This document shows, one piece after another, positions 14,165 through 32,000 of a stretch of DNA of 32,000 nucleotides (the first letter of the stretch is position 1; each line of letters starts with the position of its first letter). The DNA is from Halogeometricum borinquense DSM 11551 (GTDB lineage: Archaea > Halobacteriota > Halobacteria > Halobacteriales > Haloferacaceae): positions 2,760,001 to 2,792,000 of the forward strand of contig NC_014729.1 of the NCBI RefSeq assembly GCF_000172995.2. Direction: 5' to 3'. Under the pieces are notes generated by a model that saw only the letters and a program-made list of their open reading frames with translations, did no database searches and had not been told where the DNA came from. The translations under genes were made by a program, and so were the position numbers.

Positions 14165-14166
14165 GT

Positions 14167-14514: not shown

Positions 14515-14520
14515 CGAAGA

Positions 14521-14997: not shown

Positions 14998-15046
14998 GTG
15001 TCTCACCTCCGTTCATAAGAGTGGTTTTAGGGTGTGAGATGGGTGT

Positions 15047-15739: not shown

Positions 15740-16012
15740 ATGGCAAGCGCCAATCCATCTACCCAAGGCGCGGACGGGACGCGAAAGACGACCCCGCAAG
15801 GCGACGTCAACAGTGAGGTACTCGGGGAGAAAGTGCACGATGATATAAAGACGAGGCAGGCCCAACAAAATGGGAACTCTGAGAACTGCATTGAGGTCAA
15901 TCTCACAAAATTCGGAAAGCAATATCACGGAATCGAGAAAGGACAGCTCCTTGAGGTCGAAGTTCGCGAAGGCGGTATTCTGATCAAACCCTGTGAATTC
16001 GCCGAACGATGA
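15740..16012 (+). CDS. AbrB/SpoVT-like small DNA-binding protein (90 aa)
   Basis: The C-terminal IEVNLTKFGKQYHGIEKGQLLEVEVREGGILIKP resembles the swapped-hairpin AbrB/MazE fold motif. I chose internal ATG 15740 because the N-terminus of the track ORF from 15554 overlaps the divergent gene and reads as junk. Confidence 0.7.
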   Translation: MASANPSTQGADGTRKTTPQGDVNSEVLGEKVHDDIKTRQAQQNGNSENCIEVNLTKFGKQYHGIEKGQLLEVEVREGGILIKPCEFAER

Positions 16013-16632: not shown

Positions 16633-16647
16633 CCGAGGTATCTTTTC

Positions 16648-17547: not shown

Positions 17548-17565
17548 CGCTCTAAGGGCATATCC

Positions 17566-17590
17566 GAGGGGGACCCTCCCCCTCCCCCCC
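17566..17590 (+). terminator. G/C homopolymer hairpin (GAGGGGG-ACCCT-CCCCCTC) followed by a C7 run after the NTPase gene
   Basis: A 7-bp perfect stem at 17566-17572/17578-17584 and a C7 run at 17584-17590, located 19 nt after the stop codon. Confidence 0.35.
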
Positions 17591-17712
17591 TTATGGTCAG
17601 TTAGCTGTACGCGTGTTATATCGCGGGCCGGTTCGGCGCCGCAACGATGCTGCCACCATGATACCGGGGTTGCACCCACGGCGAAGCGCGGAGCGCGAGG
17701 AGGTCGCTCGAC

Positions 17713-18891
17713 ATGAGTTCGCACTTAAAAATAGAAGACGTTCACGACGCGATTGAGAACGGCGCTCGGACGAAGAATGAAATCGCCGAGGTCGTTGGTA
17801 AATCGCCCTCGAATACGAACCGCAAACTCAAGGCGTGGGTCGAGAACGAGGACGTCCGCCTGGATCGGCACTGGAACCACGGCGACGGTGGCGGCTACGT
17901 CTACACGATTCCCGCCAAGGACGAGATCGACGATGCGGAGGACCTGCCGATCCTCGGCTCTCGCAACTACGACTGGGACCGGTTCGTTCCCGACACCGAG
18001 GACGTTCCCGTGTACCGGCAGGCCGAGCGCGAACTCGACGAGATCAAGGCCGTCCTCAAGGCGCGCGGCGCGACCGGGCAACTCCCACGGTTCCAGATCT
18101 CCGGTCCGACTGGGTGCGGCAAGACGACCCTCGCCGAGTATCTTGCTGCTGACCGCGGCGCGCCCATGATCACGATTCAATGCAACTACGCGCTCCGCGG
18201 CGCGGAACTCCTCGGAACGCCTCAGATCGTCGGTGGTGACGTCATGTGGGTGGACGGTCCGCTCACTCGTGCCCTCCTCGCCTCACGAGAACGCGAGGTC
18301 CTTGTCCTGATCGACGAGGTCACACGCGCAACCGCGCGGTCGAAAGGAACGCTGTTTCCGGCGCTCGATCACCGCGCCGAGGTCAAGATCAAGCCCCGCG
18401 GCAATGAGTTGATCTCCGGCGTAGCCGAGGACATGATCACAGTCGCCACGATGAACGAAGGGCAGGATTACGAAACGGAGGAGCTTGACGCCGCTGAGGA
18501 GCGTCGTCTCGGACTCAAGTGGGAGCTTCCTTACCTCGGGCAGCACTCGCCCGACCTCGAGGCCGAACTCGTTGCGACCAAGACACCGATGCCGAGTACC
18601 GACGCCCGCGTTCTCGTCGATGCCGCCAACGTCGTACGCGACGCCGCCGAGGACGAGTCGGAGCCCGCGATCACCCGCGGTGTCCCGACTCCTGCGGTGA
18701 TCTCTTGGGCACAAACTGCCTACGCGTTCGCTGAGCGTGGGCTCAACGATCCTGTCGGTCGTGCCATGCAGTCCGCGGTCGTCAAGCCCGTCTACGACGA
18801 GGTCGCGGGTGACGTCGCCGGTAAGATACACTCAGCGTTGAAGCGAGCCGACCATGAGCCCGACCTCGGCCCCGAAGAGGTGACGGCATGA
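17713..18891 (+). CDS. MoxR/CbbQ/GvpN-like AAA+ (AAA_5) ATPase with an N-terminal wHTH-like domain
   Basis: Walker A is ISGPTGCGKTTLAEYL and Walker B is VLVLIDEVTRA. The N-terminal TKNEIAEVVGKSPSNTNRKLKAWVEN is HTH-like. GGAGGT lies 9 nt upstream of the ATG. Confidence 0.9.
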   Translation: MSSHLKIEDVHDAIENGARTKNEIAEVVGKSPSNTNRKLKAWVENEDVRLDRHWNHGDGGGYVYTIPAKDEIDDAEDLPILGSRNYDWDRFVPDTEDVPVYRQAERELDEIKAVLKARGATGQLPRFQISGPTGCGKTTLAEYLAADRGAPMITIQCNYALRGAELLGTPQIVGGDVMWVDGPLTRALLASREREVLVLIDEVTRATARSKGTLFPALDHRAEVKIKPRGNELISGVAEDMITVATMNEGQDYETEELDAAEERRLGLKWELPYLGQHSPDLEAELVATKTPMPSTDARVLVDAANVVRDAAEDESEPAITRGVPTPAVISWAQTAYAFAERGLNDPVGRAMQSAVVKPVYDEVAGDVAGKIHSALKRADHEPDLGPEEVTA

Positions 18892-19073
18892 GCGCGGTCG
18901 TCGCGAGGGCGTTCGCTCGATTCGTCTCTTGGCTTTCTCCTCCGGAGGACGTCGCCGACGAGCTCCCCGCGTGGGACGAGTGCTACAACTGTGGAGGGAC
19001 GATTGAGCCGCCCGAGCGTCCGAGCATGGTCCTCGTCGAGTGTTCAGAGTGCGGCCGTCGAAACATCCGATGA
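18888..19073 (+). CDS. Small zinc-ribbon protein (61 aa)
   Basis: CYNCGG...x17...CSECG gives two CxxC pairs. There is an ATGA overlap with the AAA+ gene. Confidence 0.7.
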   Translation: MSAVVARAFARFVSWLSPPEDVADELPAWDECYNCGGTIEPPERPSMVLVECSECGRRNIR

Positions 19074-19092
19074 ACGAACCGCGACGCCACCG

Positions 19093-19129
19093 CGCACCGG
19101 AGCGGTGCGGTTCGGTGCGCCTCGCACCG
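19093..19129 (+). promoter_or_regulatory. Four-segment alternative-hairpin element upstream of the VWA gene
   Basis: The segments are CGCACCG (19093-19099), CGGTGCG (19103-19109), CGGTGCG (19113-19119) and CGCACCG (19123-19129). Segments 1 and 4 can each pair with either 2 or 3. Confidence 0.4.
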
Positions 19130-19139
19130 TCACGACGCT

Positions 19140-20348
19140 ATGAGTGAGATCGGCGACGTGATCGCGGTGATCCCGCAGCACTACGTTAACGAGGCCGACG
19201 TCTCGTTTACCACCGAATCCCTCGACGTCTCTGGTGTCCTCGTCGATGTCCTCGAGCCCGAGGAGAATGACGGCCGCCGCACTCTGGTTGTTGACAACGA
19301 CGGATCCGAGTACCATCTCGCCGCCCGCGAGCGCATGGCCGCCGACGGACTCACCGAGTGGACACCCGGGCCCGTGCGGACGAGCTCGAGCGTCGAACTC
19401 GGTGAACTCCGCTCAATCGACGTCGATCCACCTGACGAGGATGAGGGTGCTGCCGTCATTGATGACGTCGAGGCGCTCGACAGTGAGGATCTCTCTAGCG
19501 AAATCGGCGAGATAGGAGGGATCCACCGCGGTGGCAAAGCGACCTCAAGGCTCGCTGATCGGCGGAGCGCCCGGAACCACCGCGTCGATAACTACTCTGG
19601 GAGCGCGCCCGCGAGCGACGTTCGCGACGAGCTCCGAGCCGGTGGGACCGCAGCGGCGGTCGTGCGCGAATTCAAACGCCTTGTCGCCGAGGAAATCCGT
19701 GTCACTGATCGCGTCGGTGAGCGGCCGGATGTCCGCAACGTGATCCGGTTCCTTGCGGGTGACGACACCGTTTTCGACGATCTGTGGTCCCGCACCGAGA
19801 CGAACGACACTGGCGACCGCGTCGTCGGAATCGCACTCGACATGAGTGGCAGTATGGGCAACGCCGAGCATGATGCGAAAGCTGCGGTCGGCGCGCTCGC
19901 CCTTGCCGCGAGTGCCGTCGATGACGATGTCGTGATCACCGCGTTCCCCCAGGGAAAGCGTAAGAGTGCGCTCGTCACCGGTCCCTACGAGTCGTGGCGG
20001 TGGCAGCACCTCGATGCCACGGAACCCGGCGGTGGGACGCCCATGCTTCCGGCACTCCGCGACGTTACCCGACTTATGCGTCCACTCAAGGGTCGTGAGC
20101 GCGTGCTGTTTGCGATCACCGATGGCCGGCCGAGTCGCGCCGATAGGGTCGCCGAGCTCGTCGAAGATCTCCGAACCTACGGGACAGCGGTCGTTGGGTT
20201 TGGGTTCGGTCGCGTGAACGAGTCCACGCTCGAAGAGCTATTTGGGAGAGACGGCTACCGGCACGTTGACGTTGAGGATCTCCCGCGGGCGCTCGTCGGT
20301 GCGTACCTGGATCAACTCGAACTCGACGCGACGCTCGACAGGCAGTGA
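19140..20348 (+). CDS. von Willebrand factor A (VWA) domain protein with a complete MIDAS motif, CobT/NorD-like partner of the AAA+ ATPase
   Basis: MIDAS elements are GIALDMSGSMG (DxSxS), GGGTP (Thr) and AITDGRP (Asp). The N-terminal region is about 200 aa and acidic. Confidence 0.9.
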   Translation: MSEIGDVIAVIPQHYVNEADVSFTTESLDVSGVLVDVLEPEENDGRRTLVVDNDGSEYHLAARERMAADGLTEWTPGPVRTSSSVELGELRSIDVDPPDEDEGAAVIDDVEALDSEDLSSEIGEIGGIHRGGKATSRLADRRSARNHRVDNYSGSAPASDVRDELRAGGTAAAVVREFKRLVAEEIRVTDRVGERPDVRNVIRFLAGDDTVFDDLWSRTETNDTGDRVVGIALDMSGSMGNAEHDAKAAVGALALAASAVDDDVVITAFPQGKRKSALVTGPYESWRWQHLDATEPGGGTPMLPALRDVTRLMRPLKGRERVLFAITDGRPSRADRVAELVEDLRTYGTAVVGFGFGRVNESTLEELFGRDGYRHVDVEDLPRALVGAYLDQLELDATLDRQ

Positions 20349-20353
20349 GGCAG

Positions 20354-20358
20354 AAAAA
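20354..20358 (-). terminator. Oligo-T (minus strand) immediately after the 3-gene membrane operon, within the 12-nt convergent gap to the VWA gene
   Basis: The minus strand reads TAG TCTTTTTCTGCC directly after the stop at 20361. Confidence 0.35.
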
Positions 20359-20360
20359 GA

Positions 20361-20690
20361 CTACAGGTTGAACAACTCGCGGACACCGCCGCCTCCGCTG
20401 TCAATTCCCGTCTCGTTGTGCTTGAGCCATGCGTGGGCTCGTTCCTGTGCTTCGTCTGTAGTGTAGCATGTCGAGACGAGTTCGGCAGCAAGCGGTTCCC
20501 CGTGTTCATCAACGTCGCTTGCGAGGACGAGCACGATCTCCCCGGAATCAACGGCGATGACATGGGTACGGTCGCTGTTGCGGTGCTCGCGCTCCCACAC
20601 CTCGAGGACTTCGCCGCCGATCTCCTCGTAGCCGTGGCGATGACGGCGGTTTCGAGGGCCGGTGGCGCGGTGGTCCCCGCGTTCGCTCAT
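20361..20690 (-). CDS. Small soluble acidic protein (109 aa)
   Basis: ATG 20690 overlaps the upstream stop (ATGA). The N-terminal 104 residues of the track ORF 20361..21002 are Arg/Ser-rich read-through of the neighbouring gene. Confidence 0.65.
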   Translation of the reverse strand: MSERGDHRATGPRNRRHRHGYEEIGGEVLEVWEREHRNSDRTHVIAVDSGEIVLVLASDVDEHGEPLAAELVSTCYTTDEAQERAHAWLKHNETGIDSGGGGVRELFNL

Positions 20691-20920
20691 GCGATCTCCG
20701 TGCCCTCCGCCTCGTTCTTCTCGGATCCGACGACCTGGCTTAGGTAGATCAGGCCGTTCTGGATCGTGAGTACGGCGAGCCCACCCAACGCGATCAACGC
20801 CGGGAGGAACGACACCGGGGAACTCACGATCAGGTGCGCGAGAAGCGCGACCGCGAGGAGTCCAAGCATTAGTGAGAGTGCGATACGTCCCTCGACGACA
20901 TCGTAGTGCGTTACGGTCAT
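20687..20920 (-). CDS. Small 2-TM membrane protein (77 aa)
   Basis: ATG 20920 overlaps the upstream stop (ATGA). There are two hydrophobic helices. Confidence 0.65.
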   Translation of the reverse strand: MTVTHYDVVEGRIALSLMLGLLAVALLAHLIVSSPVSFLPALIALGGLAVLTIQNGLIYLSQVVGSEKNEAEGTEIA

Positions 20921-21348
20921 TGTTCTGTGAACAGGATCGGCTTCTCCGACACTCCGTAGGCGACGAGCACCTCGCCGAGTTCGAGGAGTACGACGACGAC
21001 ACACCCCGTGACGACGAGCGGCGTGAACGCGTTGGCCGTCATCGAGGCGACGATCAACGCCAACACTGCCATCAATCCCGCTGCGGCGAGGCCGTTCTTA
21101 GCGACCCGCTCGAGATCCTCCGAAGTCGGCTCGTCCGGAAGGATCTGGGCTGCGAATCGGCTCGCGAGGATGTCGGCGACGCGGTCAGTCACTCGAGGTG
21201 GGGCAAGGAACTCACGCGGTTCCCGAGCGCCGCTCAGGAGACGGGAAACGACCCACCCGAGTGAGAGACCGAACGTGGCGATCAACACGTAGGCAACGGG
21301 ACCGGAGGGCGCTGCCACCGCGCCAGCCGTAGTCGGTACGCTCGGCAC
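20917..21348 (-). CDS. Membrane protein (143 aa, about 4 TM)
   Basis: The GTG start has GAGGTG 9 nt upstream. Hydrophobic helices are separated by a charged loop. Confidence 0.7.
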   Translation of the reverse strand: MPSVPTTAGAVAAPSGPVAYVLIATFGLSLGWVVSRLLSGAREPREFLAPPRVTDRVADILASRFAAQILPDEPTSEDLERVAKNGLAAAGLMAVLALIVASMTANAFTPLVVTGCVVVVLLELGEVLVAYGVSEKPILFTEQ

Positions 21349-21560
21349 TATGGGGCACCTCGGTTCGGGAGTAGTCGGAGAGTCATACGGTCGTGTAGTG
21401 GCTGCAACTACGCCCTAACCGTCTCCTCGCGGTTTCATAAACCACGGCGGATAACCTTATTCGAATAAGATTTGGTTTAAACAGTTTACTCCCGCTATCT
21501 GTTGTGTTGAATCTCAACATCTGCCAAACTCTTATCAATTCACATCGCAGAGAACCGCAT

Positions 21561-21743
21561 ATGCCGAAGATATTCAGAAACAACATGAATTGGCATCATG
21601 ATGGTCCTGGTGGTTGCAAAGTTGTTGATCCAGCAGGTGTCGATAATCACCTTGTTCACAACAAGGACTGGGGTGAAGCACTCGGTCTAATAGAGGATGA
21701 CGCTGGTGATCGGTGCGGCCAATGCAATTGGCCTGACGGATAG
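21561..21743 (+). CDS. Possible small Cys-containing protein (60 aa)
   Basis: The ATG lies within the track ORF 21504..21743, and there is a C...CxxC pattern (CKVV...CGQC). It sits in an AT-rich region. Support is weak. Confidence 0.3.
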   Translation: MPKIFRNNMNWHHDGPGGCKVVDPAGVDNHLVHNKDWGEALGLIEDDAGDRCGQCNWPDG

Positions 21744-21924
21744 TTTGGTTAGCGCTAAGTAGTCGTTGGCAATTAACGTCGAGCTATTCTGGTTTCATCG
21801 CAACTTTCTCTGCAAGATGTACTGAACAGTCTCCTCGATATAGACGAAGCTGTAGGAATACGATTCTTTCCGTGTTCAGCAGCTATCCTGTCATTTGAAA
21901 TATTTTTGTCCTATACAGATATAT

Positions 21925-22263
21925 ATGGGAAATAAAGACCTTAGAACTGCATTCAAGCAGTCGATCAATTGCATGGATGATGATGTTGATTGGGTAGCTA
22001 CGACAAACCTAGACGATCCGTCATCTGAAATGACCGGTTACGAGTCCTTCGATGTTGTACTCCATTTGAATACGACCGATACGCAGATTGCACGCGAGAT
22101 TGTGGGAGATGCTGGTGAGAAGATTAAAGACCGAGACGACTGGGACGGCAAGTTACTGTTTGAAACTATCTGGGAGGGGTCCCCAGAAATCGAGATGAGA
22201 GTACGGGTGTACTTGACGTCTGAGGCAAGACAGAACGGGAGTGGCGCTGAGTTATATTTCTAG
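21925..22263 (+). CDS. Hypothetical acidic protein (112 aa)
   Basis: ATG 21925 is preceded by an AT-rich TATA-like AAATATTT about 25 nt upstream. The track ORF starts at TTG 21895. Confidence 0.45.
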   Translation: MGNKDLRTAFKQSINCMDDDVDWVATTNLDDPSSEMTGYESFDVVLHLNTTDTQIAREIVGDAGEKIKDRDDWDGKLLFETIWEGSPEIEMRVRVYLTSEARQNGSGAELYF

Positions 22264-22467
22264 TAGCCGTTGATTCACCACGGATGCCTTTCAGGTTGTA
22301 ACTCTCCGTTTATCCGATGCCGTATGGTTTCTACGATTGTTTGAATACTTTCCCATTACCGACAACAACCGTTTATGACGACGTGATCACGGTGAACCTG
22401 GTGCTGCTATTGATGCTAAACGTTTGTCGTACTTCTTGAACTGATTTGATTTGCATTAAGCACATTG

Positions 22468-22488
22468 CCGACTTGTTATACAAGTCGG
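22468..22488. promoter_or_regulatory. Perfect 21-nt palindrome CCGACTTGT-TAT-ACAAGTCGG, 89 nt upstream of the small recombinase gene
   Basis: The 9-bp arms are exactly complementary around a 3-nt centre. This geometry is typical of a tyrosine-recombinase core site or an operator. Confidence 0.4.
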
Positions 22489-22576
22489 AAGCGAACCCCC
22501 TGTATCACCCACACTTGCACCTCGATCACGTCGGTGTCCGGTGCCTCTAAGTGAAATGTTGTTATAAGAAATCTTC

Positions 22577-23182
22577 ATGCGATTGGAAGCGACCGCGAAA
22601 GAGGATCAGTACAAGATCTGGATGACTGATTCCGAACTCAAACAGTTAGAGCGCGTGGCCGCAAATCAACGCGACTACTTGATCATTCGACTTGGGGGGC
22701 GAGTCGGTCTCCGCGCCTTCGAGATTCCACAGATTTGCCCGAAGCACGTGAAGCGGACCGACGATGGCGAGCACTATCGCCTGCGCGTGCCCGAAGGAAA
22801 GGACACGACCGGGAACGGTGGAAAGCCTCGGGACGCCTATCTGCCGAAAGACGTCGAAGGAGACATACACCGGTTTCAGAACGCCGAGGACATCGGACGG
22901 AATCAGCCACTTGTTGACCTCACTGAGCGCGGTGTTCGCAATGTCGTGAAGCGCACGGCCACCCGTGCAGCTGAAGAGACCGGCGACGAGGACTTTCGAC
23001 ACGTCAGTAGCCACGATCTCCGGCGTCGGTTCGCTCAACGCCTCTTGGTTGACCGGCAGATGAACCCGCGAGTCGTCATGGCTGTTGGCGGGTGGGACTC
23101 CTTTCAGGCAATCGAACCCTACCTCAACGCACCGACGCCCGAGGTCGTCAATCAGGCCTTCGAAGAGGCAGAGCTGTCGTAA
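22577..23182 (+). CDS. Minimal tyrosine recombinase (201 aa, catalytic domain only)
   Basis: Catalytic signature: R in GGRVGLRAFE, K in GGKPRDAYLP, HxxR in SSHDLRRRFA, W in GGWDS and Y in IEPYL. There is no N-terminal SAM-like core-binding domain. Confidence 0.85.
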   Translation: MRLEATAKEDQYKIWMTDSELKQLERVAANQRDYLIIRLGGRVGLRAFEIPQICPKHVKRTDDGEHYRLRVPEGKDTTGNGGKPRDAYLPKDVEGDIHRFQNAEDIGRNQPLVDLTERGVRNVVKRTATRAAEETGDEDFRHVSSHDLRRRFAQRLLVDRQMNPRVVMAVGGWDSFQAIEPYLNAPTPEVVNQAFEEAELS

Positions 23183-23411
23183 CGTCGTTGAGAAGTAAAT
23201 CTTGGTGGCTCTGTTGGAAGTTCCAGAAATTGATGTATCTCGCGTGCTGAATTTGAATATCTATCCTCCTGAACCAGCTGTTAGAATCACTAAGAGAACT
23301 CACATGTAGGAGTTCTAATTGTTCCCGATCCACCTTCTACTCGCCGTATAATCTGGTTTGACCGTCTGTATAGGCTAAGTTTGATATGTTGCCATACCAT
23401 AATATACAATC

Positions 23412-23636
23412 ATGTCTAAAGAGCGAGCAAAATCCCGAATCGAGGCTGAATTTTCGGATAGGAGTGAAATCCCAGACGCCAGCGGTAGCAAGAGCATAGA
23501 TGTGCGTATCCCGAATTCAGGCTTGGATATTGATGACGTTCAGGAAATCGACTACGTAAACGACGTACTTGAGGAAGAAGACGAGTTCCGAGTCTATGTT
23601 TCGGCGGACTCTAACGTGGGCGTCTGGACGACCTAA
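23412..23636 (+). CDS. Hypothetical acidic protein (74 aa)
   Basis: An ATG ORF in the AT-rich island with an acidic C-terminal half. I recognise no motif. Confidence 0.4.
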   Translation: MSKERAKSRIEAEFSDRSEIPDASGSKSIDVRIPNSGLDIDDVQEIDYVNDVLEEEDEFRVYVSADSNVGVWTT

Positions 23637-23866
23637 GTCAGTATCGACCAGCCATCCGCGCTACTGCAAAGCTTACCGTCTGTATCTACCAATCTATTCA
23701 TCCCAGACTGTGATTGGTCAATCAACGATGCACGCTCTGTATTCAGCACACTCACGAGTCCCATCAAGTTTTGAGGATTTCAACAGAGCCATCCTAATCT
23801 ATTCGCGGTCGGTGTCACGGAATATCTCAGGTGCCGCGTCTTCAATATCGAGGACGTTGAACATGG

Positions 23867-24067
23867 TTACGCCCGGAGAATCGCCGCTTCGTCAACCATT
23901 CCGTCGAGATGATCCTCAAGCGCCTCAGCATTCTTGTCGTCGAGTCCGACGAGCACGATCCCGGTGAGATCCGTCTCGGCGAGTTTGTCAAGGAGTTCCT
24001 CCTGATCGGTTGTTGCCTCCGTGACGAGTCGTGTTTGTATGGGTGTGCCGTCGTTCTCGGTACTCAT
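23867..24067 (-). CDS. Hypothetical acidic protein (66 aa)
   Basis: ATG 24067 overlaps the upstream stop (ATGA). The track ORF starts at 24082. Confidence 0.45.
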   Translation of the reverse strand: MSTENDGTPIQTRLVTEATTDQEELLDKLAETDLTGIVLVGLDDKNAEALEDHLDGMVDEAAILRA

Positions 24068-24264
24068 GCTCTCACCGTCCAAGAGTCCCGCACGCGTCCG
24101 CCCGTTCCGTGTATATTGATCTCGTCGCCGGGGGCCGCCCGACGCCGGGCTGCATCGACCGCGTTCTGCTGCGTGCGATGAGAACTTGTTTTTCTACCGT
24201 TCGCTTCGACTTTCCAGTCGTAGGGCTCGCCGCGCGCGGTCGGCATGATGTTGTACCGCGTCAT
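24064..24264 (-). CDS. DUF2188-like small protein (66 aa)
   Basis: WKVEANGRKTSSHRTQQNAVDAARRRAAPGDEINIHGTGGRVRDS fits the DUF2188 pattern as I remember it (W.V...g......t...Ai..Ar..A......l.IHg.dG.ir). Confidence 0.55.
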   Translation of the reverse strand: MTRYNIMPTARGEPYDWKVEANGRKTSSHRTQQNAVDAARRRAAPGDEINIHGTGGRVRDSWTVRA

Positions 24265-24370
24265 GAGACTCTCTCGACGCCGTTCATCCTAATCACCCCA
24301 TGTTTAACCTTCTGCGATAGGTTCCAGGGGCAGAAATTTAGGCAAGAGAGCGTGTCGGATAGTGGTACAC

Positions 24371-24655
24371 ATGAGTCTCCGAAGCTTCCTCAACAATGCA
24401 CTCGGATTTGGTGGCAGTAGTCCGCAGTATACGCCCGGCGAGGTGACCTGGTCCGTTGCATACGACGTTGACGATTACGATGGGCCAGGTTGGTATCTCA
24501 CTGCAAAAGGTCCGGAGGTACACGAGACGGATGGCCCCTTCCGCTCGAAAGGAGCGGCAATAGATGCTGCACGGGAAAGGGGATCCGAAGGAGACGAACT
24601 CAGAACCTGGGACAAAGACGCCTTAGAACCAGAAATAACAACGATAAGGCGTTGA
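24371..24655 (+). CDS. Second, divergent DUF2188-like small protein (94 aa)
   Basis: GWYLTAKGPEVHETDGPFRSKGAAIDAARERGSEGDELRTWDKD has the same pattern with a degenerate C-terminal half. I preferred ATG 24371 over the track GTG 24362. Confidence 0.5.
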   Translation: MSLRSFLNNALGFGGSSPQYTPGEVTWSVAYDVDDYDGPGWYLTAKGPEVHETDGPFRSKGAAIDAARERGSEGDELRTWDKDALEPEITTIRR

Positions 24656-24682
24656 GTTACTCTATCTAGTCCACCGATTTAG

Positions 24683-25921
24683 TTAGTCCCACCAGCTGCT
24701 ACGCTGCTCCTCGTAGCTTGGATCCTCGAAAACTGGCGGGATGTTGCCTGGTGCTAAGTTATGAGCTAGTCCCCAGCCGACGTACCATCCTCGAGCATCT
24801 ACATCTGTTTCCGACTCGATCGTTATTGTTGCTTGAGTCAAGTACTCAAACTCCCCATCATTGTCAAAGTCACGGGCTGTCCCGCCATCACCGCAGACAG
24901 TATATTCTCCCTCGCACCTATCTTGAGCGAATGTTATGACTATGTCGGCTTTCCAGGGGTCCTGTACTCGTGTGAAGGAAACGTCCGAAGGGACTTCTTT
25001 GGCCTTCCACTCTTCAAAATAGGTGACGGCGTGGTTTACTTGCGACTTGGTCTCTGTCAAACTGTTCTTCGAAACATTAGAATAATCGACATACACGGAG
25101 AGATTCGTACTCCGCCACGCGAGGCTTTGGTTCTCGACACTGGGAGCGTCGAAAGTCGGATTTTTGCACCCGTGAGAACCTGACCAGTACGACATCACCC
25201 AGTGTGGTTTTTCACAGTGAGTAATTCCGAGAATATGGCCGAACTCATGGATGATCGTATTCTTGACTGTACGGTAGTTATTCGACTTGTTGTAGAGAAT
25301 TTGGACGTTTTCAGGTGGACGGGCACTGGTTGTCCTGTTTAGCCGATGAGCGCAACCAGAGGCCCCCTGTGGACAGTTAATCGTATTATTGTACCAGACG
25401 ATTATGTCGGGGTTTTCAGCATCTGGTCTGAGTACGAAATCGACGGAATATACACCATACTCCGGATGATCTTCCCAATAATTGAGTGATTCAGCCACGG
25501 CACCAGTCAAATTCCGGGACGGTGCGGCTTGATTTCGTATTCCCACGACGACAGTCTCCTTATTCCACGGGTTCTGAACCGTCTGATCAGCCGTTTCTGA
25601 GACGGTCGTGTTAGTCGGTCCTGATACCGTTGATCCACTACCTCCAGTGTCTGGCCCCGTGAGTACGCCAACTCCCGCAAATAGAACCGTGAAGAGAATA
25701 TAGGCACCAAATCCGAATTTGATGATCTCCCACAAACCAGAGAGCGGATTGTTCCGGAACTGGCTCAAGTAATATTTCGCCCAAGAGGGGTTAGTGATCC
25801 ATCTGATAACCGGATAGCTTACGGTCCAACCACACCGATGGCATTTGAGAAATTTGTCGTGGGATAGTCTCCAGACCCTTTGTCCACACTTCGGACAAGT
25901 CCGACCTTCGCTGCTCGGCAT
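24683..25921 (-). CDS. Membrane-tethered metzincin-type zinc metalloprotease with an N-terminal cytoplasmic zinc ribbon
   Basis: The zinc ribbon is CPKCGQ...x14...CHRCG. A single TM follows (GFGAYILFTVLFAGVGVL). The ectodomain has HEFGHILGITH (HExxHxxGxxH), a downstream Met-turn-like VMSY, and many N-x-S/T sequons. Confidence 0.85.
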   Translation of the reverse strand: MPSSEGRTCPKCGQRVWRLSHDKFLKCHRCGWTVSYPVIRWITNPSWAKYYLSQFRNNPLSGLWEIIKFGFGAYILFTVLFAGVGVLTGPDTGGSGSTVSGPTNTTVSETADQTVQNPWNKETVVVGIRNQAAPSRNLTGAVAESLNYWEDHPEYGVYSVDFVLRPDAENPDIIVWYNNTINCPQGASGCAHRLNRTTSARPPENVQILYNKSNNYRTVKNTIIHEFGHILGITHCEKPHWVMSYWSGSHGCKNPTFDAPSVENQSLAWRSTNLSVYVDYSNVSKNSLTETKSQVNHAVTYFEEWKAKEVPSDVSFTRVQDPWKADIVITFAQDRCEGEYTVCGDGGTARDFDNDGEFEYLTQATITIESETDVDARGWYVGWGLAHNLAPGNIPPVFEDPSYEEQRSSWWD

Positions 25922-25977
25922 TTGAGCAGACTACTTTCACATACTGTGATAATTACTTCGACCAAGAAGCTCAACAA

Positions 25978-26283
25978 TTACTCGTCAGGTTCAAGCTCTT
26001 CGGCCTTAATCTCGCCTTCAAGATACGCTAATCCCTTTTCAGTAATTCGATAATAACGTTTAGTCTCGTCAGTAAGCTCTAACAAGCCTATTTTTTCCAA
26101 GTCACCTATCCGACGCGAAAAGGTACTCCGACTCTTCTCTGAATAACCGCGTACTTCCGCAATATTGTGATGAACGGTTCCCGGCTGAAGCTCTACCCGT
26201 TCCCCCGATATAGACTCCATTTCCCGGAAAAACTCCAAGATGGCGTCATCTACTTCGTTCATCCACGGTACCCGGGGGCGCAT
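25978..26283 (-). CDS. phiH1-repressor-like winged-helix transcription regulator
   Basis: The N-terminal PWMNEVDDAILEFF, followed by NIAEVRGYSEKSRSTFSRRIGDLEKIGLLE...YYRITEKG, is typical of the haloarchaeal virus/plasmid wHTH repressor family. Confidence 0.85.
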   Translation of the reverse strand: MRPRVPWMNEVDDAILEFFREMESISGERVELQPGTVHHNIAEVRGYSEKSRSTFSRRIGDLEKIGLLELTDETKRYYRITEKGLAYLEGEIKAEELEPDE

Positions 26284-26463
26284 GTCCCCTTATCTTTGGT
26301 TCCGATGTATAGCCGCACCGAAAAGTCTGCTGACTGAATCATATATCCTATGTATGAGTAATATTGTGCAAACATATAAATAGGACGGACATTACGAGAG
26401 TTATAACGGAAGCACTTCGCGGACCCGTCGCTCTTCGGCGGTGGGTCCACTTGTCAGAACAAA

Positions 26464-26493
26464 GCGGACCCCGTGTTAGGGGCACGGGTCCGC
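26464..26493. other. Strong GC hairpin (11 bp with one bulge, 7-nt loop) in the repressor/integrase-operon intergenic region
   Basis: GCGGACCCCGTG-TTAGGGG-CACGGGTCCGC. A related imperfect GGACCC...GGGTCC hairpin lies about 40 nt upstream. Confidence 0.4.
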
Positions 26494-26578
26494 GTGGACT
26501 TCCGTGACCTACCACGAAAGCCATGTACAACGACTCGATATGGGGGCTTGAAACCCTCGAACGAACGACAGTATCGGT

Positions 26579-26649
26579 GACTACTTTCACCGCCTGCGAT
26601 CCCGAAATAACGGGGGGCGGTGCGGATTTACGACTACTTTCACTTTCAC
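26579..26649 (+). promoter_or_regulatory. Direct 12-nt repeats GACTACTTTCAC (26579-26590 and 26632-26643, the second followed by TTTCAC); candidate operator
   Basis: This is an exact 12-mer duplication 53 nt apart, 50-120 nt upstream of the integrase-operon start and next to a divergent repressor gene. Confidence 0.35.
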
Positions 26650-26702
26650 TCCCCATACAAGGCTCGACTCTTTTATGGGGGAAATCATCGGCATCGACTG
26701 CG

Positions 26703-26969
26703 ATGCCTAAGACGCTGACGACGATTGAGCTTGAGGATGATGTGGACCGCTGGCGGTACGTGTGTCCGCGTGGTCACCGCGATTGGGAGCCGACGAACAA
26801 CCACTTTTGGTGTGCGGCATGCGCTCGGACATATCACGACGACATCGATCCGGAGTTTCAGGAGCTGAGGGATCGTCGTGACGGCGAGCCACTGTCGCGT
26901 GATGAAGTGCGGTTGATGACGCCCGCGGGGCCGTACCGCGAGGTCTACAAGGGCGGTGGTCACGCGTGA
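26703..26969 (+). CDS. Small zinc-binding protein (88 aa), first gene of the integrase operon
   Basis: CPRGH...x14...CAAC gives Cys/His ligands. I chose internal ATG 26703 because the upstream part of the track ORF 26523.. reads as non-halophilic junk. Confidence 0.65.
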   Translation: MPKTLTTIELEDDVDRWRYVCPRGHRDWEPTNNHFWCAACARTYHDDIDPEFQELRDRRDGEPLSRDEVRLMTPAGPYREVYKGGGHA

Positions 26970-27139
26970 CCCATCACGTCAGCTGCCACGAGTGCGATTT
27001 CGACGCACTGATTGAGGGGGCGTTCGCCACCGAGCGCGCTATCGAACGCCACCAAGAAGAGACCGGTCATAGGGTCAGTCAGGAGTACGTTGCTCCTAGG
27101 GAAACGACACGAGTCGCCACAGACGGAGGAGATCACTGA
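26966..27139 (+). CDS. Small C2H2-like zinc-finger protein (57 aa)
   Basis: It is not in the track (GTG start, under 60 aa). There is a GTGA overlap with the upstream stop. The protein reads VTHHVSCHECDFD...ERHQEETGH (CxxC...HxxxxxH). Confidence 0.45.
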   Translation: MTHHVSCHECDFDALIEGAFATERAIERHQEETGHRVSQEYVAPRETTRVATDGGDH

Positions 27140-27270
27140 TGTCGTGCGTTGAATGTGGTTCTCCAGCGCGGGGGCTTCGGTGTCAGACCTGCCAACGCAC
27201 GCGTGATCTTGAGGAATTCTGGGAATCGATCAAGTTCGACGATGACCCCGAGGAGGAGTCTGATGAGTGA
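27139..27270 (+). CDS. Small zinc-ribbon protein (43 aa) with an acidic tail
   Basis: It is not in the track. MSCVECGSPARGLRCQTCQ has CxxC-x8-CxxC. The ATG overlaps the upstream TGA by 1 nt. Confidence 0.5.
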   Translation: MSCVECGSPARGLRCQTCQRTRDLEEFWESIKFDDDPEEESDE

Positions 27271-27871
27271 CGGTACTGCTCAGGGCGAATTAGATTGGCC
27301 ACCGGAGTTTGAGCGAACACCCGCTGACGAACGCCGATCCTACCCGCACGGATTCGAGGTGACACGGAGTGAGGCATTCGATTCGGTTCTGAAACAGCTC
27401 CGGAGGATGGACGCGAAGAACGTCCGACTCGATACCGACGCAGAGCATCAAAAACGGAACCCAAACAAGCCCTACGCGAACTCATCGTTTGATGACCCTG
27501 GTGTAGTCGTTCGCTTCGAACACGATGGTGAGCAGTACGCGATGCCGATGGACAAGTGGGACAACCCGAGGGACAACGCTCGGGCTATCGCTCTCACACT
27601 AAAAGCGAAACGCGCCCTCACGCGCTACGGTGTCGAGACCATCGAATCGGAGTTCTCAGCTCACCAACTCCCGCCTGGAGACGACCGAGAGAATGTCGTT
27701 GTCTCCGGGGCGATCGAGGAACCGCACGAAATTCTCGGAGTCGCATCAGACGCACCAGAGAGTGTTGTGAAGGCCGCTGCGCGGACTCGGAAGAAAGAGA
27801 CGCACCCAGACAATGGGGGCGACGTAAGTGAGTTCAAGCGTGTCGTGAACGCCGAGGAGGAGTTGCTGTGA
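27263..27871 (+). CDS. J-domain (DnaJ-like, HPD motif) protein with a conserved-looking prophage-type N-terminal domain
   Basis: The C-terminal PHEILGVASDAPESVVKAAARTRKKETHPDNGGDVSEFKRVVNAEEEL is a J domain with HPD. I chose ATG 27263 (8-nt overlap with the upstream gene) over the track start 27149. Confidence 0.85.
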   Translation: MSDGTAQGELDWPPEFERTPADERRSYPHGFEVTRSEAFDSVLKQLRRMDAKNVRLDTDAEHQKRNPNKPYANSSFDDPGVVVRFEHDGEQYAMPMDKWDNPRDNARAIALTLKAKRALTRYGVETIESEFSAHQLPPGDDRENVVVSGAIEEPHEILGVASDAPESVVKAAARTRKKETHPDNGGDVSEFKRVVNAEEELL

Positions 27872-27902
27872 TGCTCGCAGATAACCACGGTGAGGTGCGA
27901 GA

Positions 27903-28931
27903 ATGAAGACACCCTCCGACCTGACGCCTCGAGAAGCAGTTCGTCGATATCTCGACCGACGGAGTACTGAACTCTCCGAGTCGTCGGTTCGTACCTACCG
28001 GTACCGTCTGAAACTATGGGTTGAGTGGTGCGAGGATGAGAACATCGAGCGGGTTGAAGACCTGACTGGCTGGACCTTCGAGCAGTTCGAGGCGTTCCGT
28101 TCAGGACAGGGTATTGCCTCCCCCACGCTCCACGGCGAGATGGAGACGCTGAAAGGTCACATAGAGTACCTTGAACGCATCGAGGCCGTTGATGACGGAC
28201 TCGCTGACAAGGTCCATGTGCCGGACGTTCCGGATTCGGAAATGTCGCGCGATACGATGCTCCGGCCGGAGGACGCAGAGGACCTGATTCGTTACTACCG
28301 TACGCACGATAACGTCTACGGAACTCGGTTCCACGCTGCTCTCGAACTCGCGTTTCACACTGGCGCTCGACTCGGTGCGCTTCGCGGAATCGATCTCCGC
28401 GATTACCACTCGGACGAGCAATTCGTTGAGTTCGTTCATCGGCCGGAGACTAATACGCCGTTGAAGAATCAGCGAAGTGGCGAACGCTCTGTTTCGCTAC
28501 TGTCCGAGGTCTGTGACGCCATCGACGAGTTCATCGCTCACAATCGGCCGTCGGGTCACGACGAGTTCGGACGGTCGCCGCTGTTTCTCACGTATCACGA
28601 GAACCGAGTCTCTAAGAACGCGTTTAGAGCGTGGATATACCGTGCGACGCAGCCCTGTGTGGCGGGTACGTGCCCACACAACTACGACCGTGAGACGTGC
28701 GACTTCCGTCGTCACTCGACCGCAAGCCAGTGTCCGTCCTCAAGGGCACCACATCACGTTCGCACTGGTTCGATTACGTGGCATCGAGACCGGGGATTTC
28801 CTCCGGAGGTGACCGCTGAACGCGTGAATGCGTCTCAGGAGGTTATCGAGAAGCACTACGACAAGGCTTCCCAGCGAGAGCGGATGGAGTTGCGCCGTCG
28901 CCCTCACCTGGGGAAGCTCGAAATCGAGTGA
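27903..28931 (+). CDS. Tyrosine integrase (342 aa) with an N-terminal SAM-like core-binding domain and a Cys-rich insertion
   Basis: Catalytic R in HTGARLGALRGIDL, HxxR in PHHVRTGSITW, and HRD...EKHY (Tyr). The four-Cys insertion is CVAGTCPHNYDRETCDFRRHSTASQC. GGTGAGGTG lies upstream of the ATG. Confidence 0.92.
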   Translation: MKTPSDLTPREAVRRYLDRRSTELSESSVRTYRYRLKLWVEWCEDENIERVEDLTGWTFEQFEAFRSGQGIASPTLHGEMETLKGHIEYLERIEAVDDGLADKVHVPDVPDSEMSRDTMLRPEDAEDLIRYYRTHDNVYGTRFHAALELAFHTGARLGALRGIDLRDYHSDEQFVEFVHRPETNTPLKNQRSGERSVSLLSEVCDAIDEFIAHNRPSGHDEFGRSPLFLTYHENRVSKNAFRAWIYRATQPCVAGTCPHNYDRETCDFRRHSTASQCPSSRAPHHVRTGSITWHRDRGFPPEVTAERVNASQEVIEKHYDKASQRERMELRRRPHLGKLEIE

Positions 28932-28949
28932 GTCTGCTCCAGCAGACTC
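28930..28949 (+). terminator. Perfect 9-bp hairpin GAGTCTGCT-CC-AGCAGACTC overlapping the integrase stop codon
   Basis: The arms are exactly complementary with a 2-nt loop. It could be a terminator or a recombinase-binding palindrome. Confidence 0.45.
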
Positions 28950-29011
28950 ACCCAGTGAAGTGAGCCACACATCCCACTGTTTGGCTCACTCAACAGCATG
29001 AGCCAGAATTC

Positions 29012-29070
29012 CACGTCAGACATCACGACTCACCAATCATGATGAGCATCACGTCAGACTTCATGACTCA
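29012..29070. repeat. Two 21-nt near-identical direct repeats, CACGTCAGAC(A/T)TCA(C/T)GACTCA, 38 nt apart
   Basis: The copies are at 29012-29032 and 29050-29070, with 19/21 identity, just downstream of the integrase gene. Confidence 0.5.
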
Positions 29071-29280
29071 ACGGAGAGAGGTACCGGAGTGTAAAGAAAA
29101 TCAGGGTGGTTGCGGGCCGGGCGGTCCCACTATTTCTGTCCGAACGAAGTGAGGATGAAATCGTCACGAGCGGCTGGTTTAAACTAGCGAGTGCAGCGAA
29201 TCGGAACGAGTGAGAGGTCATATCCGGGCAGTTCCACTGCTACGCGAACGGTACCAACTCACCGCACGAAAAGTTGAACC

Positions 29281-29358
29281 GGGAGGATGGGAGGGGGGAA
29301 ACCCGGCAACTTGGGAGGGGGGGGGAACGCCCTGACCACAGGGGGGGAAGGGACAGGG
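29281..29358 (+). repeat. Cluster of G-runs (G3, G3, G6, G3, G9, G7, G3, G3); G-quadruplex-prone, homopolymer-rich segment
   Basis: GGGAGGATGGGAGGGGGGAAACCCGGCAACTTGGGAGGGGGGGGGAACGCCCTGACCACAGGGGGGGAAGGGACAGGG. The G9 run is at 29317-29325 and the G7 run at 29341-29347. Confidence 0.6.
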
Positions 29359-29633
29359 CTACATGTCGTTTGTAGATACAATTACAAATACTCACTGGTA
29401 CAGCTCAGTATATCGGAGCTAGATCATGCTCACCGCCTTAATAACGGAGGTGCAGATCCGATCACTCAGTGCCTCTAAAGTGCAACCTATTGGGATCACG
29501 TCATATATTGTCATGAAGAGATGACAATCGATATCCTCGAAACGGGTCCCCCGGCCGTCTCGTAGTGTGGTCGGAGCATCGCAAGGAAGGTGACGGCGAC
29601 GACAGATTGAAGATCAGCGTTTCGTCGAATCAG

Positions 29634-30518
29634 TCACGCGGAGGTGCCACGTACTGCGGCGTCGTTTGCGTCGTCCGCGTTGTCCGAAGTGGCGAGCGAG
29701 CGATAGAACGCGACGGAAAACGTCAGCAAGAGGCCCGCGGACAGCCCCATCAGAATCGTCGCAAAGAGCGTGAGTGCGGCGGAAGCCACGATGGAGATCT
29801 GGGGAACCCCGGAGAGGACCTCGGAAAGGAGTGTGTTCGTCGCCGATGGCGAGAGTTGCGAGGAGAGAGTCGAAGCGGGAAGGCTCCCGAAGAATCCGAA
29901 AACGAGACTGATACCGAACACGACTACTGAGTAGCCGACCACTGGCCAGAAATTCTGCCGGACGATGCTGACGCTCCGAAAGAAACTGCTGAAAGCGCCC
30001 TCGTCGTCGAAGACGATGGCTTGTCCGTAGAACTGGATGAAAATGAAGGGAATGAGAAACAGAAGAAGGAACAGGACACTGCCGACGACCATGATCAACA
30101 GTAAGACGGGGAAGAGTGCCTGAGGCGAGTCGAAAACAGGAATAATGGCAACAAGCGTACCGAGACCAACGACCACCCACGCGATGGTTCCGAAGACGAT
30201 GCTCCCGCCGAGAAGCAAGAGGTACGCTCCCAGCATCGACGTGTAGTGCCGTTTCCCCATCTCGACAAAGGTACCGAAGTTCGTCGTTCCGTCGAGTGCT
30301 TCGTCGGCCATGCCGAAGATTCCGCCGAAGATGAACGGAAGTACCAGCACCGTAGCGACGAGGGATACCGCCGAAGCGATGATCGTGGTAGACGGTGCTG
30401 CCAACGGCACAAACTGGAGCGGGAGTTGGAAAAGTGCGAGAAGAACTGTGATACCAGCAATGACGGGATTTCGTCGGAGGGCCTCAACCGCAGTTTGGAG
30501 GGAGTGGGCGACGACCAT
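29634..30518 (-). CDS. Polytopic membrane protein (294 aa, 6-7 TM), probably a host gene
   Basis: Hydrophobic helices run throughout. ATG 30518 has a TTTTTCAA element about 30 nt upstream. The N-terminal 37 aa of the track ORF look non-coding. Confidence 0.8.
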   Translation of the reverse strand: MVVAHSLQTAVEALRRNPVIAGITVLLALFQLPLQFVPLAAPSTTIIASAVSLVATVLVLPFIFGGIFGMADEALDGTTNFGTFVEMGKRHYTSMLGAYLLLLGGSIVFGTIAWVVVGLGTLVAIIPVFDSPQALFPVLLLIMVVGSVLFLLLFLIPFIFIQFYGQAIVFDDEGAFSSFFRSVSIVRQNFWPVVGYSVVVFGISLVFGFFGSLPASTLSSQLSPSATNTLLSEVLSGVPQISIVASAALTLFATILMGLSAGLLLTFSVAFYRSLATSDNADDANDAAVRGTSA

Positions 30519-30645
30519 AGTCGGATATTCCCGTCCTCGCGTTGAAAAACTTGGTGTTAGGTTGACAGATATTCGGATGTGCGGAGACGTTGAACGTTCG
30601 GAGACGACCGCCGGGTCTGGAACGAACACGAGGCGATGAAAGCGC

Positions 30646-31332
30646 TCAATCGTTCATATGCGCTTGCTCGAACGGATACGGCGGTAGGCGAAGTTCGTCC
30701 AGTCCGGGGAGGTGTTTGACGTTAAAGACGACTTTCATGTCATCAGTGAGGGGTGCACCCATACAGGAGAGTCGGATGTCGCTGTCGAGCATCGTCGAAG
30801 GGAGGATATGATCACCGGGCGTATCCATCTCGCCTTCAAAGACGGCGACAGCGCAGTTCGCGCACGCTCCACCACGGCAGGCGTACGGCCACGCATAGCC
30901 GCGGTTCTCGGCCGCTTCGAGAAGTGTCTCGTTCTCCTGAACGAGGAACTGTCCGTAGTCTTCGTGTGGGAGATTTGCCGCGGCCGCCTTCTCAAACAGG
31001 TCGTCGTCACCGAGATCCCACCCGTGGTCGTCGAGTACTTCGTAGTTCAGATACTCGATTTTCGATCTCAGTTCGTCCTCGTCTTCGTCGCCGTCATCCG
31101 GGACGCTTGCTGAGGAGGACGAAGAAGGCGTGTCACCCGAAACTTCGCCGTTGACGGCCTCAATCGGATGGCCCTCCTTGATCATCTCGTACGCCGAGCG
31201 GACGCGATTAAACTCCGCTGCGGAACCCCCTTGGTCGGGGTGCACCTCGATGACCCGGCGTCTGAACGCTCGATCAACCTCCGCGTCGTCCGCATCCGGT
31301 TCGATCCCGAGAATCTCGAACGGAGAATCCAC
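30646..31332 (-). CDS. J-domain / plant-type [2Fe-2S] ferredoxin fusion protein
   Basis: The J domain is FEILGIEPDADDAEVDRAFRRRVIEVHPDQGG (HPD). The ferredoxin cluster motif is CRGGACANC (Cx4Cx2C) plus LSCMG. I preferred GTG 31332 because an ATTTAC element lies about 28 nt upstream. The maximal ORF (TTG) extends to 31476. Confidence 0.85.
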   Translation of the reverse strand: MDSPFEILGIEPDADDAEVDRAFRRRVIEVHPDQGGSAAEFNRVRSAYEMIKEGHPIEAVNGEVSGDTPSSSSSASVPDDGDEDEDELRSKIEYLNYEVLDDHGWDLGDDDLFEKAAAANLPHEDYGQFLVQENETLLEAAENRGYAWPYACRGGACANCAVAVFEGEMDTPGDHILPSTMLDSDIRLSCMGAPLTDDMKVVFNVKHLPGLDELRLPPYPFEQAHMND

Positions 31333-31615
31333 GCCGACGAGTACGGGATGAGAACGTAAATCCTCTCCCTTCTCGGTAACACGAACGACGCGTACACTAC
31401 AGCATTGACGGCGATTTGTACGTTCGACTGCACAGCCAGCCACCAGCGAGTGAGTGGGGGCTTGCAGACGGAACAAGGGAGAATTTCGGAGACCGTCAGA
31501 CGCGCGTCAGACGCTCCGATGACGCCGCTCGTGAGTGATTATCAGAATCGTGAATCGCTGGATTAACTATAACTATTCTCGGCGTAGATTGCCAGAAAGT
31601 ATCAGAGGTCAACCC

Positions 31616-32000
31616 GTGTCACGAGACTCACCCCCCGGGAGCAATTCCGGACTTGAAACCGTCGGCGACGAACAGAAGAACCGGTCGGTCGAACAGACAT
31701 CCGACGAGGAGCGTGCGACCGGCATTGTCGCCGAAACGTCGGACGAGTCCGTCGAGCCGACCGAATTTGTCGATTCGGTGGTCGAGACGGCGCTCACTAA
31801 CCCGGTGGCGGCAGGCGACGCTATTGGTGACCTCTTAGCCATCGTCCGCGACTGCGATGAGGACGCGAGAGTAGCGGCCGAGGAAGCGCTCGATTTGATG
31901 GGACTCCTCCGTCCTGTCGAGTTTGAGGTGTGGATAGGCGACATAGTACAATTTGCGTCTGCCGACCGCGACGAACTCTCATTCGTCGGGTTGCGGGCAC
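31616..32000 (+). CDS. Acidic protein, 3'-truncated by the window edge; HEAT/PBS-lyase-repeat-like
   Basis: It is not in the track because there is no stop within the window. The frame is open from GTG 31616 (GAGGT 7 nt upstream) to nt 32000. The sequence is D/E-rich: ...AAGDAIGDLLAIVRDCDEDARVAAEEALDLMG.... The listed antisense ORF 31609..31944 is Ser-rich junk. Confidence 0.6.
   Translation, partial: MSRDSPPGSNSGLETVGDEQKNRSVEQTSDEERATGIVAETSDESVEPTEFVDSVVETALTNPVAAGDAIGDLLAIVRDCDEDARVAAEEALDLMGLLRPVEFEVWIGDIVQFASADRDELSFVGLRA

Follow-up and report, generated by a model that had tools for sequence, protein, structure and literature searches.

The closest described counterpart of the locus studied here is the control region of SNJ2 (Betapleolipovirus), in which orf3, orf2 and int point in one direction and orf4, hicB and hicA in the other. 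SNJ2 Orf4 represses PInt through a palindrome beside the TATA box, with CGAAA given as the B recognition element (BRE), and induction requires Orf7 together with Orf8, a homologue of Orc1/Cdc6 (PMC10123103). The same study places the HicAB pair, downstream of orf4, outside the switch and reports repression of the cognate PInt by five further Orf4-like repressors. Integrases of the SNJ2 type occur widely on haloarchaeal mobile elements of diverse kinds (PMC5861418). In two other systems, ImmR/ImmA (ICEBs1, phage) and BlaI/BlaR1, a repressor gene lies beside a zinc metalloprotease gene on a mobile element, which is also the arrangement found here. We analyzed a 32,000-nt window of DNA from Halogeometricum borinquense containing the control and integration end of an SNJ2-type integrated mobile element, where the gene of a winged helix-turn-helix (wHTH) repressor is followed by that of a predicted membrane-anchored zinc protease. 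A first-pass annotation had read this pair as a possible switch operated from outside the cell. Our results make it likely that the protease is instead cargo in a variable slot of the element, anchored in the membrane with its catalytic domain facing outward, and probably made from its own promoter that is wired to the regulator of the element.

The two open reading frames (ORFs) lie on the minus strand with a gap of 56 nt, exactly where the first-pass annotation had placed them (101 aa, 25978..26283; 412 aa, 24683..25921). The 101-aa product is a winged-helix repressor of the phiH1 repR/SNJ2 Orf4 family, as had been recognized from its sequence. In tblastn searches of phage records it matched SNJ2 gp4 (39%, E 6e-9), phiH repR (36%, E 3e-3), HRPV9 ORF5, named 'PhiH1-like repressor', and BJ1, and it also matched phrog_2440 (E 5.7e-23). 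A database search returned 32 homologues with a common N-terminal MRPRVPWMNEVDDAILEF motif, of which 22 were aligned together with SNJ2 gp4 and HRPV9 ORF5 (alignment A2). Divergent from the repressor gene runs an operon (26703..28931, plus strand) that includes a 342-aa SNJ2-type tyrosine integrase (27903-28931, plus strand; 37% identity to SNJ2 Int, E 6e-75). This position, previously interpreted as that of a lysogeny control locus, matches the SNJ2 layout (PMC10123103), and both elements carry accessory genes directly downstream of the repressor, on its strand. By analogy with SNJ2 and the five other tested elements, the wHTH protein would be the Orf4/phiH1-type repressor of the element and would hold the divergent integrase operon off. 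The ends of the element are undefined because there is no tRNA in the window that could serve as target and no convincing flanking direct repeat that would indicate att (attachment) sites; its extent, 21-29.5 kb, was taken from a dip in GC content and from comparison with a related element.

Co-occurrence of the two proteins was examined by running profiles of both against the six-frame ORFs of all loci fetched. The only places where both occurred were the window and the same locus of a second H. borinquense strain (L012; CP050274). The protease occurs without the wHTH protein in L001, L002, L003, L004, L005, L006, L013, L014, L015 and L016, with an upstream 209-aa recombinase and 78-aa ORF in L001, an ATP-grasp neighbour in L002 and L003, and a chromosomal location in L004, L005 and L006. 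No wHTH gene lies upstream of the protease in the closest homologues that share its N-terminal zinc ribbon (L001, L013, L015, L016). Conversely, the wHTH gene is followed by genes other than that of the protease, which is absent from the locus, in SNJ2, HRPV9, L024/25, L026-28, L030/31 (which is a true pleolipoprovirus encoding VP3 and the spike protein), L032 and L033. The expectation that the pair would recur in other haloarchaeal elements was thus not borne out, and the proposed functional switch lacks the synteny it called for. We read the protease as passenger cargo, since no other genome examined has the two genes side by side.

The comparison with a sister element, a 74-kb metagenomic contig (L024), shows where such cargo is accommodated. 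The wHTH protein, a J-domain-like protein and a small recombinase of the two elements are 61%, 45% and 84% identical, respectively. Between wHTH and recombinase genes, the sister element carries an 86-aa gene at the Orf7 position, Orc1/Cdc6 and a PQQ protein, whereas the window element has the protease, DUF2188 genes and small ORFs. Since the contents differ in this way, the slot downstream of the repressor holds variable cargo; in SNJ2 the slot is occupied by the HicAB toxin-antitoxin pair. The 412-aa gene would then be a passenger in this slot beside the repressor, and its product no obligate partner of it.

The 412-aa protein is predicted to consist of a zinc ribbon, a transmembrane helix, a linker, a matrixin-like domain and a degenerate matrixin-like domain. 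The four-Cys ribbon, single transmembrane segment, sequon-rich ectodomain and complete metzincin signature with Met-turn candidate listed in the first-pass annotation were all present. The catalytic matrixin-like domain (aa 118-258; 25148..25570, minus strand, as are all features of this gene) was delimited with Pfam, an alignment of relatives (A1) and Foldseek, and the metzincin M10 assignment held: the match to Peptidase_M10 (PF00413) scored 39.8 bits against a gathering score of 24 (E 5.5e-10). The zinc motif HEFGHILGITH (aa 225-235; 25217-25249) is followed 8 residues past its third His by Met243 (25193-25195), a Met-turn candidate. Residues H225, E226, G228, H229, G232, H235 and M243 are invariant in alignment A1, and 157 of the 159 relatives checked have HExxHxxGxxH. 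A Met occurs 5-12 residues past the zinc motif in all 157 of 157 relatives, a regularity of sequence that is distinct from Met-turn geometry.

An AlphaFold (AF2) model, built with a 12-sequence alignment as input, had a mean pLDDT of 70.6, with values of mostly 84-94 in the catalytic domain. The best 50 fold matches in the PDB were all catalytic domains of matrix metalloproteinases (MMPs) or karilysin, those at the top being MMP-8, MMP-13, MMP-2 and karilysin (Foldseek E about 5e-6, target-normalised TM about 0.5). With the MMPs and karilysin (MEROPS M10A) the protein thus shares zinc motif, Met-turn spacing of 8 and catalytic fold, whereas sequence identity is only 15-21%. Membrane-type MMPs resemble it further in being membrane-anchored with the catalytic domain outside. 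Canonical MMPs differ by a Ser after the third His, a PRCGxPD propeptide, a haemopexin domain and a C-terminal anchor. The residue following the third His is Cys236 in the window protein, and Gly, Asp or Cys in the family, with Ser in 6 of 157 members; no PRCGxPD cysteine-switch propeptide was found in the window protein.

The C-terminal domain (aa 259-412; 24686..25147) is specific to the protease family and conserved across it. In the AlphaFold model its elements follow a beta-alpha-beta4-alpha order, and it ends in a conserved RSxWW tail. It gave a weak match to profile positions 2-73 of Peptidase_M10 (E 3.6e-4; 20.9 bits, below the gathering score of 24), and no HExxH occurs in it. This suggests that the C-terminal domain is a duplicated, inactive matrixin-like domain.

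A hydropathy scan located the only transmembrane helix at aa 63-88 (25658..25735), AlphaFold placed a helix at aa 59-82, and the charge distribution follows the positive-inside rule for a signal anchor with the N-terminus inside. The N-terminal segment (aa 1-62) contains 10 K+R versus 2 D+E, a net charge of +8, and the region after the helix is acidic, with a net charge of -3 or lower. A 29-aa linker rich in Ser, Thr and Gly joins the helix to the catalytic domain. All 8 N-x-S/T sequons (aa 104-282) and 6 conserved Cys lie beyond the helix; shuffled ectodomains had 4.0 +/- 1.8 sequons, and 3% of the shuffles reached 8. Because of the charge split, the position of sequons and Cys, and the lipobox signals of its relatives described below, we predict a type II membrane protein whose ribbon is cytoplasmic and whose protease domain is extracellular, the same orientation as first proposed. 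The catalytic domain is probably N-glycosylated.

An exhaustive profile search detected 786 representatives at E<=1e-3 and 272 at E<=1e-30, with full-length matches covering profile positions of about 20-364. Among 151 full-length relatives, compiled from the best 150 matches and the first set, 93 (about 62%) have a lipobox N-terminus, scored as the regular expression [LVI][ASTG][GAS]C within 40 residues. An N-terminal four-Cys ribbon was found in only 3 of the 151, in addition to the window protein and a corrected L001 ORF. The family includes a chromosomal lipoprotein of Halorientalis salina (L004), a Halovenus protein with Tat signal and lipobox (L006), and ribbon-less proteins on haloarchaeal megaplasmids that NCBI names 'matrixin family metalloprotease'; most members inspected are plain lipoproteins in chromosomal contexts. 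Matrixin-like lipoproteins such as that of H. salina and those encoded on Halorussus megaplasmids share with the window protein HExxHxxGxxH, the Met-turn, Cys pairs, the degenerate C-terminal domain and RSxWW. The window protein differs in having a ribbon and transmembrane anchor and no lipobox, and its gene lies on an integrated element rather than in a chromosomal context. A cytoplasmic zinc ribbon and a signal-anchor helix stand where most of the family has a lipobox signal. The family was not found in 50,697 phage records, nor in IMG/VR beyond matches at the level of HExxH; unlike the protease, the repressor and the proteins of the integrase operon do have PHROG families. The window protease is a rare architectural variant of a large uncharacterised family, located on a known type of element. 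Its outward-facing catalytic domain presumably cleaves surface or secreted proteins; we infer both this choice of substrate and the role of the ribbon.

The four-Cys ribbon (aa 9-30; 25832..25897) has its Cys at positions 9, 12, 27 and 30 (CPKC...CHRC), and Pfam zinc-ribbon matches to this segment were all below threshold. In the NCBI model of the same gene in the other H. borinquense genome, the protein starts 43 codons late, has 369 aa and lacks the ribbon. The homologue on metagenomic contig L001, which is 60% identical, extends upstream into the same ribbon, and it is likewise present in the more distant homologues P0003 and P0014. Within the ribbon segment, 16 positions do not vary among the four ribbon-bearing homologues, including C9, P10, C12, Q14, R18, D22, L25, C27, C30, G31 and W32. 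In a comparison of the window with L001, the 44 ribbon codons comprised 14 identical, 23 synonymously different and 7 non-synonymously different ones; for 45 active-site codons these numbers were 17, 15 and 13. Because these three homologues carry the ribbon and the codon differences in it are biased toward synonymous ones, we take the long reading frame including the ribbon to be real. With 7 versus 13 non-synonymous codon differences, the ribbon is the part of the protein under the strongest constraint.

A word-indexed search for the ribbon and transmembrane segment elsewhere returned no match. The only other trace of it is an unannotated, degenerate remnant (…RFLTCNRYGWVVGYPFLRWLRYPSW…) on a megaplasmid of Haladaptatus sp. 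QDMS2 (L029, 2941-3110), in which three ribbon Cys out of four have been substituted and a stop codon breaks the frame; it adjoins helix-turn-helix (HTH) and Fic genes. Other ribbons were encountered near the family. On the chromosome of Halovenus salina (L006, 5041-7206), a protein with multiple transmembrane segments and a C-terminal zinc ribbon (RWCPDCG...CHQC) is encoded directly upstream of the distant Tat/lipobox relative, and the N-terminal Cys-rich ribbon of the relative P0077 (L016) is of another kind. The association of zinc-ribbon membrane segments with the protease family thus seems to have arisen more than once.

The 56-nt spacer between the two genes (25922..25977, minus strand) bears on how the protease gene is expressed. 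Read in the sense of the genes as ...GGTCGAAGTAATTATCACAGTATGTGAAAGTAGTCTGCTCAA-ATG, it contains the BRE/TATA-like sequence CGAAG-TAATTAT, directly followed by CACAGTATGTGAAAGTAGTC. The TATA-like element lies at -34 to -28 from the ATG, a position that fits a near-leaderless transcript from a separate promoter, and the protease gene probably has such a BRE/TATA-like promoter of its own.

This putative promoter is overlapped by a repeated motif. The 12-mer GACTACTTTCAC has exactly three exact copies in the window, all on the plus strand and within 715 nt. Copy 1 (12-mer 25929-25940, 22-nt repeat 25929..25950) is located between the TATA-like element and the protease ATG, copy 2 (12-mer 26579-26590, 22-mer 26579..26600) in the divergent control region, and copy 3 (26632..26643), preceded by ATTTAC, 60-71 nt upstream of the ATG at 26703. 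If up to 2 mismatches are allowed, 9 occurrences are observed, against a mean of 1.9 in shuffled sequences, and none of 100 shuffles reached 9. Copies 1 and 2 extend to 22 nt with 82% identity, copy 1 holds a partial dyad TCACA-tac-TGTGA, and copy 3 has one mismatch in strain L012. The 12-mer was not found upstream of the homologous L001 protease or in the sister element, which argues that the motif is a feature of the window element rather than of the protease gene. We regard it as a candidate operator shared by the protease promoter and the integrase control region. Since the motif overlaps the protease promoter and recurs in the integrase control region, expression of the protease is probably wired to the regulator of the element.

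The direction of such control would determine when the enzyme acts. Under the cargo reading, the protease might be made in the integrated state, as a form of lysogenic conversion or surface remodelling. Alternatively, the 12-mer could be the wHTH operator and the protease be made only upon derepression, so that it would remodel the S-layer (surface layer) or destroy receptors, aiding exit or transfer or blocking re-entry. A motif between TATA-like element and ATG occupies the classical position of an archaeal repressor site, the dyad in copy 1 recalls the palindrome beside the TATA box that serves as operator of SNJ2 Orf4, and the catalytic domain is predicted to be extracellular. Against this, the wHTH protein is a mere candidate as binder of the 12-mer, and the integrase-side copies are not beside the most obvious TATA (TTTTAT at 26672). 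Furthermore, the 21-29.5 kb element yielded no recognisable virion or transfer genes and, in a difference from SNJ2, none for pleolipovirus structural proteins, and no receptor-destroying protease of this kind is documented for haloarchaeal viruses in the sources searched. We consider an enzyme restricted to the induction phase possible but unlikely.

Comparison with strain L012 (H. borinquense CP050274.1) provides a view of recent changes in the element. Window positions 14613-32000 are 95.2% identical to L012 over 17.4 kb, and the similarity is mosaic, with 100%-identical blocks at 27153-29111, 24697-26329 and 21510-22383. The first of these covers the J-domain gene and the integrase. The second, of 1,633 nt, comprises protease, wHTH gene and 46 nt of promoter, and its flanks differ by 3-10%. 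At 26330-26405 the sequence is replaced in L012, and the window there resembles the sister element. The pattern points to recent cassette-wise recombination within the element. The end of the protease in L012 (window 24683-24700; L012 11080-11110) reads ...RSICADVNSTVSGC, as opposed to the family-conserved ...RSSWWD, and this divergence starts precisely at the boundary of the 100%-identical block.

Several of these observations weigh against a mere passenger. The wHTH and protease genes may be co-transcribed, and the 1,633-nt identical block implies that they were exchanged as a unit at least once. The constraint on the ribbon points to a specific partner in the cytoplasm rather than to passive anchoring. 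No Cdc6/AAA match was obtained with Pfam among the ORFs of the 21-29.5 kb element and its Orf7/Orc1 induction module was not found, so the repressor would need another input if the element is still inducible. The test of synteny is also limited by its sample of about 10 protease loci and about 9 wHTH loci, with several short contigs.

The same points feature in the explanation put forward originally, that an extracellular event (substrate cleavage, autoproteolysis or surface damage) alters the ribbon, which then binds or releases the wHTH protein or its operator and so controls excision in place of Orf7/Orc1. Two adjacent genes on the same strand, a single 100%-identity tract spanning exactly these two, a strongly constrained ribbon with a charge of +8, and a 12-mer that ties the protease promoter to the integrase control region would all fit such a mechanism. 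The same is true for the presence in the sister element of the Orc1/Orf7 genes that are missing here, and for the repeated joining of zinc-ribbon membrane segments to the protease family (P0077/L016; Halovenus L006). On the other hand, the pair occurs nowhere else among the loci fetched, no wHTH gene adjoins the nearest ribbon-bearing homologues, lipoproteins lacking any cytoplasmic part make up about 62% of the family, and the repressor family works without a protease in SNJ2 and the five other tested elements. We therefore regard this outside-in mechanism as improbable, and a secreted or surface protease that acts on surface proteins as the more plausible function. For its most specific form, in which the zinc-ribbon/transmembrane/matrixin protein would be an input device of the SNJ2-type repressor, the ribbon contacting the wHTH protein or the 12-mer operator and the protease domain reporting a surface event in place of the DNA-damage-sensing Orf7/Orc1, our expectation is very low. 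A small probability of some functional link between ribbon and repressor is retained because of the own-promoter spacer, the 12-mer, the identical blocks and the missing Orf7/Orc1 module, which do not outweigh the missing synteny. An antirepressor protease of the ImmA/ImmR or BlaR1/BlaI type that cleaves the wHTH protein in the cytoplasm has the adjacency of repressor and zinc protease genes in its favour and nothing else, and is hardly credible: in contrast to those M78 and M56 enzymes with conserved pairing and a cytoplasmic-side active site, the window protein is M10-like with a metzincin/MMP fold and motif, gave no match to Peptidase_M78 (PF06114) or M56 (PF05569) at E<=1, belongs to a lipoprotein-anchored family, is not conserved as a partner, and reverses the arrangement of BlaR1/MecR1 (extracellular sensor, cytoplasmic-side protease) in having the protease predicted outside and the ribbon inside.

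The integrase operon, with gene calls taken from strain L012, also encodes an 88-aa Cys-rich protein (26703-26969, plus strand; phrog_18310 and phrog_36874), a 57-aa protein (26966-27139, plus strand) and the 202-aa J-domain-like protein (27263-27871, plus strand; phrog_9210), whose counterpart in the sister element also precedes the integrase. The 88-aa and J-domain-like proteins were considered as relatives of SNJ2 Orf3 and Orf2 and rejected, as no similarity was found. On the far side of the cargo region lies a 201-aa tyrosine recombinase that consists of the catalytic domain only (22577..23182, plus strand; Pfam Phage_integrase, E 5.6e-9). The small recombinase of the sister element mentioned above, of 202 aa, is located at the matching position (10023-10631), and the orientation of this gene relative to the wHTH gene is reversed between the two elements. 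The cargo segment between recombinase and wHTH gene may be invertible or rearranged. The 209-aa recombinase of L001 was compared as a possible member of the same family and rejected. A DUF2188 gene lies at 24064-24264 (minus strand; Pfam E 3e-12), and an unannotated 97-aa ORF (24362-24655, plus strand) converges on the protease gene; this ORF looks DUF2188-like by eye, has no Pfam match and is uncalled in L012. As an equivalent of Orf7 this ORF was discarded, having no similarity to the protein at the Orf7 position of the sister element.

The divergent control region also contains a nested inverted repeat of about 100 nt (26405-26505) with arms ACGGAAG..CTTCCGT and CGCGGACCCG..55 nt..CGGGTCCGCG. 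Its RNA folding z-scores, -5.9 for one strand and -6.4 for the other, were equalled by none of 200 shuffles. In the sister element (5765-5851) the same arms recur, again with a spacing of 55 nt, within a conserved block of about 85 nt. The repeat had no Rfam match and might function as a small RNA, as an origin-like hairpin or as a site for protein binding.

Outside the element, the left two-thirds of the window (2479-21002) look like another accessory or mobile region. Its predicted products include proteins of 514 aa (eCIS_core domain, PF13699), 1049 aa (Ig-like domains) and 1061 aa (weak PHROG matches of tape-measure-like type). A MoxR-type AAA ATPase and a VWA protein are also encoded in the left region, and a DUF7845+HTH protein at 73-1689.

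Recognition of the long frame corrects a database annotation that lacks the ribbon. If the ribbon did transmit signals to the repressor, the locus would represent a switch of an archaeal mobile element that is operated from the cell exterior, and archaeal lysogeny control would be understood differently. As it is, the locus adds one well-delimited example of cargo on SNJ2-type integrative elements. It also draws attention to a large group of secreted MMP-like proteases in haloarchaea that is so far unstudied and comprises at least 272 clusters at 50% identity. This raises the question of which proteins these surface metalloproteases cleave (S-layer glycoprotein, receptors or pili), and whether an element may use such a protease to alter the surface of its host, for example in superinfection exclusion or exit.

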